In this document: positions 52,490 to 64,000 of the stretch, piece by piece
Position numbering within the stretch: the first letter of the stretch is position 1
Layout: every line of letters starts with the position of its first letter
Notes under the pieces: model-generated
What the model was told of the DNA's origin: nothing
What the model saw: the letters and a program-made list of their open reading frames with translations, nothing else
Databases searched by the model: none
Translations under genes and position numbers: made by a program
DNA from: an uncultured Candidatus Rokubacteria bacterium
Lineage (GTDB): Bacteria > Methylomirabilota > Methylomirabilia > Rokubacteriales > CSP1-6
Length of the DNA stretch: 64,000 nucleotides
NCBI GenBank assembly: GCA_963771355.1
Contig: CAVYTA010000007.1
Coordinates: 640,001 to 704,000, forward strand
Reading direction: 5' to 3'

Positions 52490-52562
52490 GAGCCGTTAGC
52501 TCAGTTGGCAGAGCACCTGACTTTTAATCAGGGGGTCGGTGGTTCGATCCCACCACGGCTCA
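52490..52562 (+). tRNA. tRNA-Lys (TTT); CCA not encoded
   Basis: Acceptor GAGCCGT/ACGGCTC, D arm GCTC/GAGC, anticodon arm CCTGA-CTTTTAA-TCAGG, T arm GGTGG-TTCGATC-CCACC. Confidence 0.96.
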
Positions 52563-52848
52563 CCTATCTTCTCGCCCAATTGCAACGCATACCTCGGCGT
52601 GGCGAGTGTTCATCACGGTGCTACTCCTGGCGGCGCGCGGGCTCCCGGCTCAGCCGGCGAGGAAGTAGGCGGCGACGGCCATGGTCGCGATCGCGATCGC
52701 GCGAATGATTGTCTGTGCGATGGGGATCATCAGTCGTCCTACTGATGACCATACTCACGCTTCGCGGAGAGCGCTAGAGTCATTCGAGAAAATCTCGCAG
52801 TGTCTCTGCAAAGACAGAATTGCTGAGTGGAAGGAGTCCGCGACGCCG

Positions 52849-54947: not shown

Positions 54948-56912
54948 TCAGCGATTGCGAAGGAGCTCGGCGATGCGCTCTTGAAGGAGCTCGGCGGCCG
55001 ACTTGGCCGGCGTGTCCGCCGGCGCGGGCTCGGCGGGCGCGGCCTTGGTCCTCGGAGCCTCGGTCCTCGGAGGCTCGCTCCGCGGACGCTCGCTCCTCGG
55101 AGGCTCCACCCGCGCGGGCTCCACCCTCACCGCCGGGGCCGACGGCGCCGCGGCGGCCACCGCCACCGGGGGCCGCTCGGCCATCGTCGCGGCCACCGGC
55201 ATGGAGCCGAGCGCCAGGCGCAGCGGCTCGGCGGCCAGGGGCCGCGCGAAGAGATAGCCCTGGCCCCGGTCGCAGCCGAGCTCCTGGAGCTGGGCCAGCT
55301 GGTCGTCGGTCTCGATGCCCTCCGCGGTGACGGAGAGGTTGAGGCTCTTGGCCACGTCGACCACCGCGCGCACGATGGCGGTGTCCTTGGCGTTCAGGGC
55401 CACGCCCTGGACGAAGGAGCGGTCGATCTTGAGCGTGTCCACCGGGAAGCGCTTGAGGTAGCCCAGCGACGAGTAGCCGGTCCCGAAATCGTCGATGGCG
55501 AGCTGGACGCCGAGCGCCTTGAGGGCGTGCAGCGCCTCCAGCGTGGACGGCGCGTCCTGCATCACCACCGTCTCGGTGATCTCGAGCTTGAGACAGGCGG
55601 GATCCAGGTGGCTCGTCGCCAGGGCGTTCTTCACCGCCAGGACGAGCCCGGGGTCCTGGAGCTGGCGCGCGGAGAGGTTGACGCTCATGGTGAGCGGCGG
55701 CTGGTGCGGGAACTGGGCCGTCCACTCCTCGAGCTGGCGGCAGGCCTCGCTGAGCACCCAGGCGCCCACGGGGATGATGAGCCCCGTCTCTTCCATCAAT
55801 GAGATGAACTCGTCGGGCTGGAGCAGCCCGCGCTCACGGTGCTGCCAGCGCACGAGGGCTTCCACCTCGATCATGCGGCCGTCGCCCAGGTGCACGATCG
55901 GCTGGTAGTGGAGGACGAACTCGCCGCGGCTCAGCGCGCCGCGGAGATCCAGCTCGAGGTCGAACCGGTTGATGGCGGGAGCGCTGCTCGCGGCGTCGAA
56001 GACCTCGAAGCGGTTCTTCCCGTTGCCCTTGGCGCGGTACATGGCCAGGTCCGCGTCGCGCAGCAGCTCCTCCGGGGTGATGGGCCGCCGGGTGTTCAGG
56101 GCGATCCCCACGCTCATGGTCACGAACACCTCGCGTCCCTCGAGCCGGAACGGCTTCTCCAGGGACTCCGTCACGCGCTGGGCCACGCTGGTGGCTCCCT
56201 CGATGCCGTCGAGGTCTTCCAGGAGGATGGCGAACTCGTCGCCCCCGAGGCGGGCCACCGTGTCTTCGGGGCGGACGCAGCCGAGCAGCCGGCGGCTCGA
56301 CTCGACCAGCACCTGGTCGCCCATCCCGTGGCCGAGGCTGTCGTTGACCACCTTGAACCGGTCGAGGTCCAGGAACAGCACCGCCACGTGCTGTGCGCGT
56401 CGCTCGGTGCGGGTGAGGGCATGCGCCAGGCGATCCATGAACAGCGCGCGGTTGGGCAGGCCGGTGAGGGCATCCTGGAAGGCTTGGCGGGTGAGCTGGT
56501 CGAGCTGCTTGGGGAAGTTGTTGATCTCCTGCGATTGCTGCTCGATCGTGCTCATCATCTTCGTGAAGGAGGCCATGAGCGTCCCGATCTCGTCGGTCCG
56601 CTCCACCGCGGTGACGTCGCCGGGCTTGGCCTCGACCACCATGTTCGCCGCGCGAGTCAGCGCGCTGCCGATGTCATAGATGATGAAGCCGCCGCCCGCC
56701 ATGAGCAACGCCATGAAGATGAGCATCACGGACACCGCGAAGAGGTCCTGCGTATGCTGGACGCGGTCCAGCAGGGGCATGAAGTACGTGTAGAAGACGT
56801 AGGCCAGGATGAGGAGCGGGATGAGGGAGGACAGGACCAGCGCCAGCCCCATCTTGTGACGGACCTGCTTCCCGCTGAACGCGATTTCCCGCTGGATGCG
56901 ATTGCTGCCCAT
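54948..56912 (-). CDS. Membrane-anchored GGDEF-EAL protein (diguanylate cyclase/phosphodiesterase)
   Basis: Two TM helices, HAMP-like DEIG, DALTGLPNR, RPED I-site plus GGDEF, EALVRW, DDFGTGYSS, Pro-rich tail. Confidence 0.95.
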   Translation of the reverse strand: MGSNRIQREIAFSGKQVRHKMGLALVLSSLIPLLILAYVFYTYFMPLLDRVQHTQDLFAVSVMLIFMALLMAGGGFIIYDIGSALTRAANMVVEAKPGDVTAVERTDEIGTLMASFTKMMSTIEQQSQEINNFPKQLDQLTRQAFQDALTGLPNRALFMDRLAHALTRTERRAQHVAVLFLDLDRFKVVNDSLGHGMGDQVLVESSRRLLGCVRPEDTVARLGGDEFAILLEDLDGIEGATSVAQRVTESLEKPFRLEGREVFVTMSVGIALNTRRPITPEELLRDADLAMYRAKGNGKNRFEVFDAASSAPAINRFDLELDLRGALSRGEFVLHYQPIVHLGDGRMIEVEALVRWQHRERGLLQPDEFISLMEETGLIIPVGAWVLSEACRQLEEWTAQFPHQPPLTMSVNLSARQLQDPGLVLAVKNALATSHLDPACLKLEITETVVMQDAPSTLEALHALKALGVQLAIDDFGTGYSSLGYLKRFPVDTLKIDRSFVQGVALNAKDTAIVRAVVDVAKSLNLSVTAEGIETDDQLAQLQELGCDRGQGYLFARPLAAEPLRLALGSMPVAATMAERPPVAVAAAAPSAPAVRVEPARVEPPRSERPRSEPPRTEAPRTKAAPAEPAPADTPAKSAAELLQERIAELLRNR

Positions 56913-59006: not shown

Positions 59007-59085
59007 GACCCCGTCGTCTAGCCTGGCCAAGGACGCGACCCTTTCAAGGTCGAGATCGCGGGTTCGAATCCCGCCGGGGTCACCA
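59007..59085 (+). tRNA. tRNA-Glu (TTC) with encoded CCA
   Basis: Acceptor GACCCCG/CGGGGTC, anticodon arm CGACC-CTTTCAA-GGTCG, T loop GGTTCGAATCC, ACCA end. Confidence 0.97.
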
Positions 59086-59737
59086 CCGCAGTTGGTACGA
59101 CCTTCCCGGGCAGGAGCGGCTCCCAAGAGCCCTGCCCGGTGAAGCGATAGCCACGGCGTCCATCCTTCTCGAAGGCCTCGCACGTTAGGCGTCCCACTAT
59201 CAATTTCCGTAGGATCTGGCGCGTTTGCGGCACATGCCGGCCGAGCAGACCCTTAACGTCAGAGGCGCGCGCAACGAGTTCTCGTTCTAGCTGTTTACCG
59301 TCGAGTAAGGCGACCTTCGCGGCCTGCTGAAGTGCCTCCAACTCGCCGATGAGGGTCTTCTTCCTTGTGTCTTCAGTCTTCAGCCTCGAGAAAAGAGATT
59401 CGTTGCGCTCACCCCTGGCGACGGCATCCACCAGGTTGCCAATGTGTGTTTCGAGAAGAGATAGCTCACGCTCGATGGCGGCTCGTCGATCCTGGAAGCG
59501 GTCCTGACCGCCTCTCAGCCGTTGCAGAGCTTTCTCGACCGCCCGAGCCAAGATCCGTTCGTCCAAGGCATCAGCGATCGCCTGGAGTACCACCTGATCA
59601 AGACCCTCCTGATGGATCAGGAGGGAGTTCTGGCAGATTGTCCGCCCACGCTTGTGGTAACGGTCGCAGCCATAGAGCGCCTTGCGCCCGCGCTTGAAGT
59701 CCCTGGTGATCCCGACCAAGGCTCCCAGCAAGTACAA
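59018..59737 (-). pseudogene. 5'-truncated large serine recombinase (zinc ribbon plus coiled-coil C-terminal half) reading into the antisense tRNA-Glu
   Basis: YGCDRYHKRGRTICQN zinc-ribbon half, long coiled coil, YRFTG; final AGFEPAISTLKGSRPWPG is the reverse complement of the tRNA; no catalytic domain. Confidence 0.8.
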
Positions 59738-59888
59738 GCGCTGACCCGCCGCGAAGCGCTACCGGCACTCGCCGGCCGGTGACACGGAACGTCGGGCCCT
59801 CGACGGCCGGCATCCAAGAATCGACACGTTCTCTGTCGATCGACTGAGCGCGCCGCGTTCTTTTCAGCCATTTAGACGCCGCCGCCGG

Positions 59889-59904
59889 TGGCACCAAGGT
59901 TGCT
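59889..59904 (+). promoter_or_regulatory. Sigma54 promoter of the truncated GGDEF-EAL-like paralog
   Basis: TGGCAC-CAAGG-TTGCT. Confidence 0.7.
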
Positions 59905-59953
59905 CCTCTGACGTGAGGGTTTCCGTGCCTGGACCACGGGCAGGAGAGAGGGG

Positions 59954-60169
59954 ATGACGATGGACGGCGAGATCAAGCGAGAGGCGGCGTTCGCGGGGCA
60001 GCGGGTCAAGCAGAAGGTCGTCTTCGCCCGCGCCCTCTGCTCGGTCATCCCGCTCCTCGTCCTGGCCTACGTGTTTTACGGCAACCTCGTGCTGTGCCGT
60101 CGGCTCCTGGGACGGCCGGTCTGGGATTTCTCATCGGGTGACACGCGTGCCACCGTGGCAGCCGCCTAG
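59954..60169 (+). pseudogene. N-terminal fragment of a paralog of the 54948-56912 membrane signalling protein
   Basis: IKREAAFAGQRVKQK...CSVIPLLVLAYVFY vs IQREIAFSGKQVRHK...SSLIPLLILAYVFY; similarity stops after the first TM helix. Confidence 0.75.
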
Positions 60170-60273
60170 CGCGGCGCGTCGAAGTAAACACGGTGATCTT
60201 TATCGCAATGTGCTGTGGCAAGAACTTGTTGCGCTACCGCGATCGATTCGACAGTAGTAGAGGAGGTCCCGAA

Positions 60274-62331
60274 ATGGCCACGCAGTCCTTGTTGCGGTCT
60301 TCCCGAAGTGCCTTCGCCGCATTGGCAGTGCTTCTCGTCGTTACGGTACTGCCGCTGCACGTCCCGGCTGTTGAAGGGGCGGAGCCCGTCGTTCCTGCTC
60401 AAGGTTCTGCTGATGGCACGCCCTCACCGACTTCAAGAGGTCACGGGCGCGGTGTGATCCGCACGGTAGGAGCGGCTCGCACCGCGAGCCGCCACATCCT
60501 CGTGCAGCTGCATCCGCGCACCGACGAGATGCGGTTCATGCAGGACGCCCACGCCCAAGGCTTGCGCCGGCTGAGCCGTGTGTATGGCACGACGTGGCTC
60601 AGGATGGCTGTCCCGGCGGGAGCCAATCCCGCCCAGGCAGCGGCGGCGGCCCGAACGCTGCCGGGCGTGTTGCGAGCCACGCTGGACTCTGTGGTGACGA
60701 TCAACGACCAGATTCCTCCTCGAGATCCGATCTACAAGAATGACGACGATCCCTCCACGAAGCCATGCGACCCGCTCCTCGAGATCTGTGACCCCTGGAC
60801 GTTGGTCGACCAGTGGGGTCTCTTCAAGGTTGAAGCAGAGACTGGATGGGTCGTCCAACGCGGCGGGCCGGGCGTCGTCATCGCCATCCTCGACAGCGGA
60901 ATCGACCTCGACCATGACGATCTGTGGGCGAAGCTCTGGACGAATCCGGGCGAGGTTCCCGGTAACGGGATCGACGATGATGGCAATGGCCTTGTCGATG
61001 ACGTGCACGGGGCCGATTTCGCCGGCAGCAATGTCGGCGGTCTGTTCGATGACCCTGGCTCCCAGGATGGGAATCCGGATGTTCCGATGGGAGGCGCGTG
61101 GGTCGTGGACCCGACGGCGACGTTCGGGATTCGTTTCGTCGGCGATGCGGCCGCAGGCGACGGGGACGACAACAACCTCGACGGGTTGATTGATATCGGC
61201 GTCACTCACGGAACATTCGTGGCGGGGATTGCCGGTGCCATGACCGACAATGTCAATCCCCAAACGCTTCAGGCCGAAGGCATGGCTGGTGCCTGCTGGC
61301 ACTGTAAGCTGATGCCGGTGCGCATGATCAATGCCGAGGGCTGGGCTTTCGGCTCGGATGCAGCCTCGGCAATCTATTACGCGGCGAACATGGGCGCCCA
61401 TGTCATCAACATCAGCTGGGGCATCGACCTCAGCGGGGCCGATCCGTCCGAGGTGGAGGCGATCCAGGTCATAGCTGACGCCATCGATTTCGCCGCAAGC
61501 CGCGGGGTGATCGTGGTGGCGGCAGCGGGAAACAGCGGCACGGCCGGCCTGCACTTTCCCGCCATCATGAAGAATACGATTGCGGTGGGAAGCTCCAACT
61601 GGCTCGATCGACGTTCTGCCTTCTCCAGTCACGCCGTTCCGGCCGAGATTCCCGATAACGGTCTCGATGATGATGGGAACGGCTGGGTGGATGACGTGCT
61701 CGATGTCGTCGCTCCCGGAGAGCTGATCTGGAGCACTGCCGTCTTGAGCGCGTACGACTCGCTGCTTTACGAACTGCTCGGTCTACCGGGGCTGGAGCCG
61801 GGGACGGACACGTATGGAGCGGCGGATGGCACGTCGTTCTCCACCCCGCTCGTGTCGGGTTACGTGGGGCTCCTCCTCTCACAGAATCCGGGAGCGACGC
61901 TGCGCCAAGTGCGGCAGGCCATCCGCGCGAACGCCCGGGACCTCCTCGACCCGCAGGGCGTTGGGGCTTCGCTGGTGGGATACGATGCCTACTCCGGTTT
62001 CGGGCGGCTCCGCATGGTCGTGACCACGCTGACCCCGGAGCCGAACGCGCCTCCTGTTGCGAATGCCGGCCCCGATCAAGCTGTCTTCGTCAAGGGCAAG
62101 GCGGTGGCCTCAACGGTGACGCTCGATGCTTCGGGCTCGCATGACCCGGATGGCACGCTTGTCTCTTACCAGTGGCTTGAGAACGGCGCTCAGATCGCTA
62201 CGGGGAAAACGGCAGCAGTGAGCCTCGGGATCGGCTCTCACACGATCACGTTGCGAGTGACCGACGACGATCAGGCAAGCAGTGAAGATCAGTTGACCGT
62301 TGATGTCAACAAGCGCGGTGGGAGGAAATAA
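60274..62331 (+). CDS. Secreted S8 (subtilisin-like) serine peptidase with Asp-rich Ca-binding inserts and C-terminal PKD-like domain
   Basis: Signal peptide; ILDSG, THGTFVAG, AAGN, GTSFSTP; two NGxDDDGNGxVDD motifs; PVANAGPDQ...LDASGSHDPDG...ITLRVTD; RBS AGGAGG. Confidence 0.93.
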   Translation: MATQSLLRSSRSAFAALAVLLVVTVLPLHVPAVEGAEPVVPAQGSADGTPSPTSRGHGRGVIRTVGAARTASRHILVQLHPRTDEMRFMQDAHAQGLRRLSRVYGTTWLRMAVPAGANPAQAAAAARTLPGVLRATLDSVVTINDQIPPRDPIYKNDDDPSTKPCDPLLEICDPWTLVDQWGLFKVEAETGWVVQRGGPGVVIAILDSGIDLDHDDLWAKLWTNPGEVPGNGIDDDGNGLVDDVHGADFAGSNVGGLFDDPGSQDGNPDVPMGGAWVVDPTATFGIRFVGDAAAGDGDDNNLDGLIDIGVTHGTFVAGIAGAMTDNVNPQTLQAEGMAGACWHCKLMPVRMINAEGWAFGSDAASAIYYAANMGAHVINISWGIDLSGADPSEVEAIQVIADAIDFAASRGVIVVAAAGNSGTAGLHFPAIMKNTIAVGSSNWLDRRSAFSSHAVPAEIPDNGLDDDGNGWVDDVLDVVAPGELIWSTAVLSAYDSLLYELLGLPGLEPGTDTYGAADGTSFSTPLVSGYVGLLLSQNPGATLRQVRQAIRANARDLLDPQGVGASLVGYDAYSGFGRLRMVVTTLTPEPNAPPVANAGPDQAVFVKGKAVASTVTLDASGSHDPDGTLVSYQWLENGAQIATGKTAAVSLGIGSHTITLRVTDDDQASSEDQLTVDVNKRGGRK

Positions 62332-62374
62332 GGATCCAAGGCTCGAGGCCTTGACGGCTCACCGATCACGACCG

Positions 62375-62560
62375 CCTGACGCCGACTTCTGTCCGGAGCG
62401 CGGCGCGAAGCTCGCGGTTGGCTGCGTCGGGTGTGGACCACGACCACGAACGTTGCCCGACACAAGTTCTGCAAGAAGTGCGGCAAACCTTTGGGCAACG
62501 CCGTCGACGCGGGGCGGGCTCCCGGGACGTCGCCATCGCTAGAGGGGTATGTCCCCAAGC
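62375..62560 (+). pseudogene. Degraded double-zinc-ribbon N-terminus of a cyclase/AAA protein
   Basis: PDADFCPERGAKL..CVGCG(fs)..HKFCKKCGKPL...YVPK parallels ADARFCEECGARM..CPACG...KKFCGHCG...YTPK at 43144. Confidence 0.65.
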
Positions 62561-62876
62561 AGGAGCAACAGACGAATGGATCTCCAATGCAGAAGATCTA
62601 CGAGGTGCTCAGGGAACTTCAGCGGGGCATGTTTTAGTGGCGTGCTGTGTTCGAGGTGGCGGTGCGCAGAAAGCTGCTGAGACATTTGGTGAAAACGTGG
62701 CCGTGACTGAAACACGGATTCCATCCGGATCTCGAAGCTGAACTCGAGGGACCTGTTCGCCTGCAAGTGGTTGCGGGCCCCCGCAACCATGCAAACTGAC
62801 CGACTACTGCCGAGACGCCCGCGTAGCTGGTTTGCTGACGATCACATAGCCCATTGGGGAAGGGACCTCGTGGCGC

Positions 62877-63089
62877 TCAGGCCGCGAGCGCGACGCCTTC
62901 GATGCAAAACGTTAGCGATGCGTTCCAACCCTCGGAATAACCCCCCGGGGTCACCACCTTATTAGCAGCGGGTGTCGCCAAGATGAGCCGCTCGATTCCA
63001 GCCTGCCCCGTGAAACGGTAACACCGGCCGGCGTCATCTTCCTCCGGCATGAGGATGATTCGTCCCTTAACAGGCGCATCACGCAGCAT
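62877..63089 (-). pseudogene. Second serine recombinase C-terminal remnant, fused in-frame across the att repeat to an ...ALAA tail
   Basis: KGRIILMPEEDDAGRCYRFTGQ aligns with VGRLTCEAFEKDGRRGYRFTGQ; then VVTP (att core) and GGYSEGWNASLTFCIEGVALAA*. Confidence 0.7.
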
Positions 63090-63243
63090 CGCTGGTGCAG
63101 ATCCGTTACGGAGACGAAGCCGCCATCACCGACGTCACTCGAGCGAAGCCGGTGATGCCGACGCCGCAGCAGACCGATCAGGGCGCGCGGCGGCCGCCGG
63201 AGATTCGCCCGCAGGATAGTCGAGCGGCCTGCTGGGTCGCGCG

Positions 63244-64000
63244 TCAGCGCTCGCCGACGACGAAGTGAAGACCGGCCAGCTTGAGGCGGATCGCGTCCCG
63301 CTGGTGCGGGCGGACGGCATCGGCGTGGGCGGTGGCCAGCTCCAGCGCGCTCTGCAAGTGGCTGATCGCCTCCGGGTTGGCGCCCGATGAGCACGGCGCC
63401 GTCGGCGGCGGTCAACAGGTAGGGCAGCGCCGCGATGGCCCGATCGCTCCGAACCCAGTGGTGGGCGAGCTGGTCGCAGACCTCCTCGGTGCGGCCGCGA
63501 TACAGCGACTCGATCGTCTCCGCAGCCCGCCCGTGACGCGTCTTGCGGTCGGCCTGGAGTAGCGTGCCGTAGGCCACCTCCTGGGTCAGGACGTGGTGGA
63601 AGCTCAGCATGGCAATGCCGCCGCCGGCCTCTTGATCGAGGAGCCCGCGGCGCTCGAGCAGCGCCAGGTCCTCGTCGAACTGCTCGCCCGGCGTCAGCGC
63701 GCGCAGGTGCGCCAGCAGGAAGCGCTTGCCGAGCACCGCCGCGTCGGCGATCAGGTCGCGCGCGGAGGGCGACAGGCGGTCGATGCGCGCCGCGATCAGC
63801 GCGTGCAGGGTAGGCGGTACCACGGCGGCAGCGTCCGCGGTCAGATCGTAGGCGCCGTCGGCGAGGACGAGGCCGCCGCGCTCCCGGAATGCCCGGACGA
63901 GCTCCTCGGCATAGAACGGGTTGCCCTGTGCCCGCTCGGCCACGGCCCGGCGCAGTCTCTCGCGCGCCGGGTAAGGATCGAGCTGGGCATCCACCAGCGC
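63244..64000 (-). CDS. C-terminal part of an AAA/STAND (cyclase-associated) protein, partial; frameshift near 63383-63385
   Basis: RAQGNPFYAEE, VPPTLHALIAARIDRL, FHHVLTQEVAY, LAHHW; corrected end ...RLKLAGLHFVVGER*. Confidence 0.8.

Follow-up and report, generated by a model that had tools for sequence, protein, structure and literature searches.

A tRNA-targeting family of serine integrases split by their own attachment site: predicted exchange of an Ala-Ala tail upon integration and a candidate degron of the free form

Several mobile elements carry the attachment site within a gene whose product is altered by integration. In the ssrA islands of Dehalococcoides the 3' end of the gene for DsiB, a serine recombinase of about 540 amino acids, runs antisense into a stable-RNA gene or into the neighboring island of a tandem array. 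According to the available text of McMurdie et al. (2011, PMC3146451), dsiB always overlaps attL and has a divergent C-terminus, and the enzyme is perhaps fully functional only on the circle. The streptococcal integrative and conjugative elements (ICEs) targeting rumA have the att site inside the gene for the serine integrase, with two C-termini, one of the excised and one of the integrated state (Ambroset et al., 2016, PMC4701971). The same paper also describes the myxophage Mx8 (IntP/IntX), where, as in SSV-type integrases, attP is located within int, a tRNA gene is the target and the C-terminus is rewritten with lowered activity (PMC4701971, PMC4383910). In the integration-dependent immunity of mycobacteriophage BPs and clusters G, N and P, attP lies inside an ORF and attB in a tRNA 3' end, integration removes an ssrA-like AA tag, and the integrase is tagged as well (PMC9262239, PMC9934374, PMC5764923; see also PMC6109161). 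Here we describe the remnant of a large serine recombinase (LSR) at a tRNA-Glu gene of an uncultured Candidatus Rokubacteria bacterium, together with its homologs. The locus lies in a stretch of 64,000 nucleotides, referred to as the window (assembly GCA_963771355.1, contig CAVYTA010000007.1, positions 640,001 to 704,000; this contig is called C7 below).

With Mx8, DsiB and the rumA ICEs the element shares a predicted crossover inside the integrase ORF and a C-terminus which depends on the state of the element. DsiB targets tmRNA and the rumA ICEs target a protein gene, whereas the local target is tRNA-Glu, and the available text on both systems reports no conserved AA end or degron. The six-gene module of the Dehalococcoides islands that contains DsiA was not seen in 10 intact relatives of the local element. 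In BPs the split gene is the repressor and a tyrosine integrase is tagged in both states, while the gene split here encodes a serine recombinase. Mx8 and SSV likewise use tyrosine recombinases, and Mx8 exchanges 112 residues for 13, compared with about 20 in the present case. The set of domains, the fold (Foldseek E 3.5e-21 to the SPbeta-type complex 9y66) and an outer dyad motif at 16-21 bp are those of SPbeta, phiC31 and Bxb1, but in the latter the att sites do not lie in the gene, and excision depends on a directionality factor of its own. The literature search yielded no report of a serine integrase with an att-encoded AA tag. An att-encoded tail swap is not mentioned in the available text of PMC12884075, and the main text of PMC10083194 has no match for "tRNA" or "C-termin". 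The design combines two known ideas in one protein, namely an integrase gene split by its own attP and an integration event that removes an ssrA-like tag.

The att core of 14 bp has two exact matches in the window (Table 1), which are 3,871 bp apart and enclose DNA of 62.8% GC, compared with 69.7% in the window. An earlier reading of the sequence alone, referred to as the sequence-only reading, had placed the core within a recombinase frame encoding VVTP at both copies, and this was found for the minus strand. At the tRNA side the recombinase frame closes with ...SRPWPG (stop 59018-59020), and the frame through the distal core closes with ...GVALAA (stop 62877-62879). The two element-side half-sites form an inverted repeat with 15/26 paired positions, compared with 8/26 for the outer arms. 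The local attP hence represents an imperfect dyad of about 50 bp around a predicted crossover of 2 bp, the dinucleotide CC (59074-59075 / 62945-62946). The same center recurs in the family, with 18 of 24 elements showing the peak of the dyad between the integrase's own arm and the distal arm at nucleotides 11-12 counted from CCA. Symmetry is strongest at 2-5 and 16-21 bp, and the own arm pairs at 0.43 compared with 0.31 for pairs swapped between elements with the same tRNA.

For a survey of the family, 80 of 273 genome matches, 80 of at least 506 metagenome loci, regions of related genomes and 21 viral loci were retrieved, with records including Nitrospira, Acidobacteriota and Rokubacteria. 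Target genes are tRNA-Glu, Ala, Arg, Ser, Met, Lys and Gln as well as tmRNA, the last in only one of the 99 non-redundant junctions among a total of 106 tRNA-anchored LSR junctions. In 34 of the 106 the tRNA 3' end was found again distally over 10 nt or more, and in 27 over 12 nt or more. For these 27 paired junctions, defined by a cut-off that was chosen after the data had been seen and including related, non-independent elements, the closest tail in frame ended with Ala in 23 cases and with AA or VA (AA/VA) in 19, compared with 1/27 and 0/27 AA/VA ends in the other two frames. At other cut-offs the AA/VA counts were 17/34 (10 nt), 19/29 (11 nt) and 14/20 (13 nt). As background, such ends occurred at 2.4% of random positions (n = 10,800) and in 2.6% of host genes under a crude gene call (n = 4,169). 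Of the paired junctions, 18 have a full-length integrase; the median identity of these enzymes is 46%, and at 60% identity they make up 16 clusters. The reconstructed attP tails of homologs are thus in frame and strongly enriched for AA/VA, whereas the sequence-only reading had named out-of-frame tails or a lack of AA/LAA enrichment as grounds for its rejection.

Natural proteins gave the same picture. AA/VA was found at none of 97 tRNA-overlapping ends and at 26 of 74 other ends. Among 150 representatives at 50% identity, 113 reach the junction, with AA/VA in 0/50 tRNA-like and 22/63 other ends (classes set by a crude pattern, with a profile that included AA tails). Closed viral contigs encode 11 LSRs without a tRNA-type tail, eight of which have an AA/VA end. 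Distant phage LSRs served as control: of the nine analyzed (of 25 listed) two ended in AA/VA, and both are att-spanning members of the family. We consider the tail swap and a selected AA end general and well supported at the sequence level, where the free form would carry an ssrA-like AA tag that is lost upon integration (19/27 compared with 0/97). The sequence-only reading is supported in part: the in-frame swap and the AA end stand, while the swap by itself had already been published for DsiB and the rumA ICEs. Most of 69 longer homologs close with the same antisense tRNA-Glu peptide as the local ORF, and three end instead in GEAVA, LAVVA and LLKVA. A sequencing artefact as source of the tail was rejected, since most homologs have the same tail. 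A subgroup (L037, L039, L154, P0087) has a Trp-rich, helical-looking tail (SWNQ..W), with an AA/VA end in three of the four.

The free isoform exists in nature, because an intact dyad is present inside the LSR genes of Microcystis phage Mae-JY30 (L282, PP438422.1), Rhizobium phage RR1-A (L289, JF974314.1) and the viral contigs L265 and L268, all of which end in AA/VA (GVIAA in Mae-JY30, GRFVA in RR1-A). In these four the dyad is centered 10-12 nt after the antisense CCA and 52-70 nt before the end of the stop codon; the tRNA targets of both phages are inferred from the core. The predicted attP of the family lies about 50-80 nt before the stop codon of the gene. For 7 of 26 natural AA/VA-ended LSR ends a matching tRNA was found further downstream in the retrieved DNA, including a full-length LSR in G102:C37. 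Such arrangements show residents of tandem arrays that carry the tail of a newcomer.

The short tails of the free state run 15-26 codons past the crossover, so that the AA/VA end is located outside the att arm of 26 bp. All four Ala codons and all three stop codons are used, and AA ends are seen whichever of the three frames the gene uses to cross the core. Differences between six pairs chosen by DNA identity fall on the three codon positions with counts of 16/13/39, with a dominance of the third position which is weaker without the last two codons (22/15/33). The position of the end beyond the att arm, its occurrence in three frames and the third-position bias therefore argue that the AA end is selected as protein. 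Asp and Glu are absent from the last two residues in 32/32 tails, and Arg at -3 gives a basic-Ala-Ala end in 12/28 tails. The tails of the integrated state have lengths of about 0 to 77 codons in any of the three frames, and residues 545-569 of the full-length homolog P0001, which form such a tail, are modeled as disordered (pLDDT <50). They look like unselected read-through. A function of the antisense-tRNA peptide, which the sequence-only reading had treated as a second functional tail, was rejected because length and frame vary freely, and the integrated form is therefore best seen as tail-less.

The ClpXP recognition end of the ssrA tag consists of small non-polar C-terminal residues without acids. 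The tmRNA tag of the host ends with ALAA, as does the local tail, and clpX is present in the host genome, which therefore favors a degron; a --LAA tag is described in PMC9262239. We consider it somewhat probable that the AA/VA tail of the free state acts as a ClpXP-type degron that is replaced at integration by antisense-tRNA residues. In a free element, either circle or phage, the tagged integrase would be short-lived, which would limit or time integration, as has been proposed for the protease-controlled tagged integrase of BPs (PMC9262239). Integration would swap the tag for whatever the antisense tRNA spells, and the enzyme without the tag would remain and be available for excision. In a tandem array a newcomer at the tRNA gives its tail to the integrase of the resident, as is seen in the sequence, and the resident would thereby be destabilized.

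A number of observations weigh against the degron. Within the retrieved DNA the distal core is absent for 79 of the 106 junctions, the cut-off was set late and the kin are related, as stated above, and 8/27 paired tails have no AA/VA end; these comprise three ending in TA, one each in AI and AS, one frameshifted end, one duplicated tRNA piece and one frame of 80 residues with an AA tail in another frame. Two integrases with 99.6% identity have paired tails that differ at 4/16 residues, and for this reason the closest core need not in every case mark the end of the element itself. Bulky hydrophobic residues are conserved at -5, -8, -10 and -12, beyond the needs of a bare degron. No SspB adaptor was found in the host genome. 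The AlphaFold model of the AA-type protein P0003 places residues 564-571 in a strand (pLDDT about 50), which would hide the tail end. It is rather doubtful that a large clade of serine integrases has its own recombination as regulator, with a tail being both degron and self-docking strand, integration turning a short-lived integrating enzyme into a stable, excision-ready one without a separate directionality gene, and newcomers of tandem arrays disarming residents by tagging.

The modeled strand is also the basis of the main alternative, in which the tail, as a short beta strand, packs onto the zinc-ribbon domain close to the base of the coiled coil and sets the integrating state. Without the tail the enzyme would then be weaker or prone to excision, so that the tail would serve as a built-in directionality factor similar to Mx8, and the terminal Ala would be small for packing and not for reading by a protease; both functions are compatible. 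We regard this as possible, with the odds against it. The strand in P0003 contrasts with the disordered tRNA tail of P0001, the tails show an alternating hydrophobic pattern with frequent Gly, and every short paired tail extends at least 15 codons past the crossover. Directionality factors bind at the junction of DBD2 and coiled coil (PMC11795197, PMC11722253), and the integrated form of Mx8 is described as less active (PMC4701971). Ten intact elements have no gene in common save one small pair, hence no conserved directionality gene, a weak test as directionality factors are generally unconserved and their absence says little. The pLDDT of the strand is moreover only about 50, and the tails are otherwise very diverse, up to the Trp-rich members L037, L039 and L154 which still end in AA/VA.

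MuA transposase carries a tag which recruits ClpX to remodel the product complex, and this class of ClpX tags is basic-Ala-Ala-like. By analogy, the integrase tail might be a handle by which ClpX strips the enzyme off the product complex once integration is complete, so that the reaction runs one way, and not a means of setting a steady-state level. Many tails, those with Arg at -3 in 12/28, resemble the MuA class, and a weakly docked strand as modeled would be conditionally exposed, but characterized serine integrases need no host factor for directionality (PMC3642061, available text), and we rate this explanation as improbable. That the AA end is a by-product of constraints on the DNA (att arm, GC-rich hairpin) without a role in the protein is very improbable. 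GCN codons are indeed common in DNA of 70% GC, and the tail consists of att arm in its first third, but the AA/VA background is only 2.4-2.6% and the end lies past the arm at variable distance, in varied synonymous codons and three frames and with the third-position bias.

At the Rokubacteria locus itself the degron, if it is one, is no longer in operation. The ORF 59018-59737 matches Pfam Zn_ribbon_recom with E 4.1e-5 and 24.3 bits, slightly below the cut-off of 25.3, and is 87% identical to residues 335-569 of P0001, which confirms its assignment to the serine recombinases. The full-length homologs P0001 and P0003 pass the Pfam cut-offs for Resolvase, Recombinase and Zn-ribbon and have the invariant catalytic S10, while the local ORF is reduced to the C-terminal part. 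It lacks the 334 catalytic residues of the N-terminus, in line with the decay noted in the sequence-only reading, and an intact active enzyme is not encoded at this locus. In the host genome, which is 99.8% complete, the search for the family gave fragments only and no intact LSR, and the local switch is therefore a relic; the local copy is dead.

Four att cores are located within 10.4 kb of contig C7 (699074, 702945, 708626, 709448), the last two beyond the window. The distal tails at the three non-tRNA cores end in VALAA, GVAVA (708626) and VVRIA (709448), all with a final Ala, and the second and third cores are each flanked on the outer side by a C-terminal LSR remnant. The VALAA tail is joined in the chromosome to the remnant of a second LSR beyond the element (41% identity over 44 amino acids, E 1e-7, BLASTP). 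The distal ORF of 70 amino acids had no match in Pfam, and its LSR identity derives from BLASTP and the family Hidden Markov Model (HMM). The site is a tandem array in which every distal tail derives from the element toward the tRNA, with the remnant of the neighbor now reading into it in frame. A gene for a class III cyclase/AAA protein with a double zinc ribbon (window 62951-64000, L001:4952-7522) extends into the remnant of LSR 2 and separates it from N-terminal LSR fragments at a distance of 4 kb. Near the start of contig C6 there are a further LSR remnant and a stretch resembling the region of the VALAA tail at 81% (C6:4959-5360, C6:11011-11112), suggesting a second decayed element of the family. 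A related tRNA-Glu array was observed in the same-genus genome G006 (C9:846000-904400, L162-L164), with nine distal cores of at least 10 nt over 58 kb, four of which have closely related tails ending in RVA/RSA.

The tail swap offers a concrete candidate answer to the question left by DsiB, the role of the variable C-terminus. If true, the degron would add a post-translational layer to the control of serine integrases and a route by which elements of a tandem array act on one another. Integrases mined from integrated elements carry the tail of the tRNA state and not that of the integrating enzyme, and the isoform cloned for genome engineering could alter activity and expression. The family also supplies many tRNA-targeting serine integrases, a kind not known according to the available text of the Islander paper of 2015, which notes Mx8 and SSV (PMC4383910). 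Mae-JY30 and RR1-A are ready material, as they provide the free-state gene with internal attP.

Table 1. Features of the tRNA-Glu element and its border to the next element (positions in the window).
Feature	Position	Strand	Basis
tRNA-Glu(TTC), target gene restored by the element's core	59007..59085	+	ARAGORN
Integrated-state tail from antisense tRNA-Glu, 18 codons past the predicted crossover	59018..59073	-	
C-terminal 239-aa fragment of LSR 1 (zinc ribbon, coiled coil, final hairpin), through the core into the antisense tRNA	59018..59737	-	
att core by the tRNA; CC at 59074-59075 (T-stem/acceptor junction, nt 11-12 counted from CCA) is the predicted crossover dinucleotide	59074..59087	+	core match, dyad center
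Element-side attP half-site, overlapping LSR codons	59076..59101	+	inverted repeat with 62919-62944
Cargo subtilase (Peptidase_S8) with PKD domain	60193..62331	+	Pfam
Predicted free-state (attP) tail, 21 codons past the crossover, GVALAA-stop end	62877..62944	-	
Distal half-site of attP, which also encodes the first third of the tail	62919..62944	+	
Distal att core, border of element 1 with the next element of the array	62945..62958	+	
Remnant of the C-terminus of LSR 2 from the next element, at present sharing its frame with the VALAA tail of element 1	62959..63089	-	

Near the distal end of the element a stretch of about 185 nt (62605-62789) has copies with 81-90% identity in the same genome (C7:766137 and 799068, with parts on C3 and C6) and occurs three times in locus L251 of the related genome G006. 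It is possibly a conserved non-coding element or a shared small-gene region of these islands. An ORF of 71 amino acids (59954-60169) looks by eye like the GGDEF/EAL protein (54948-56912) at its N-terminus, as if it were a captured host gene fragment. Apart from likely tRNA promoters, the scan for promoters and terminators found nothing. A tRNA-Lys(TTT) gene with adjoining short ORFs is located 6.5 kb upstream (52490-52564). The 14 of 24 sequencing runs listed as containing at least half of the window's words derive from six soil or rhizosphere studies, one of which is possibly the source.

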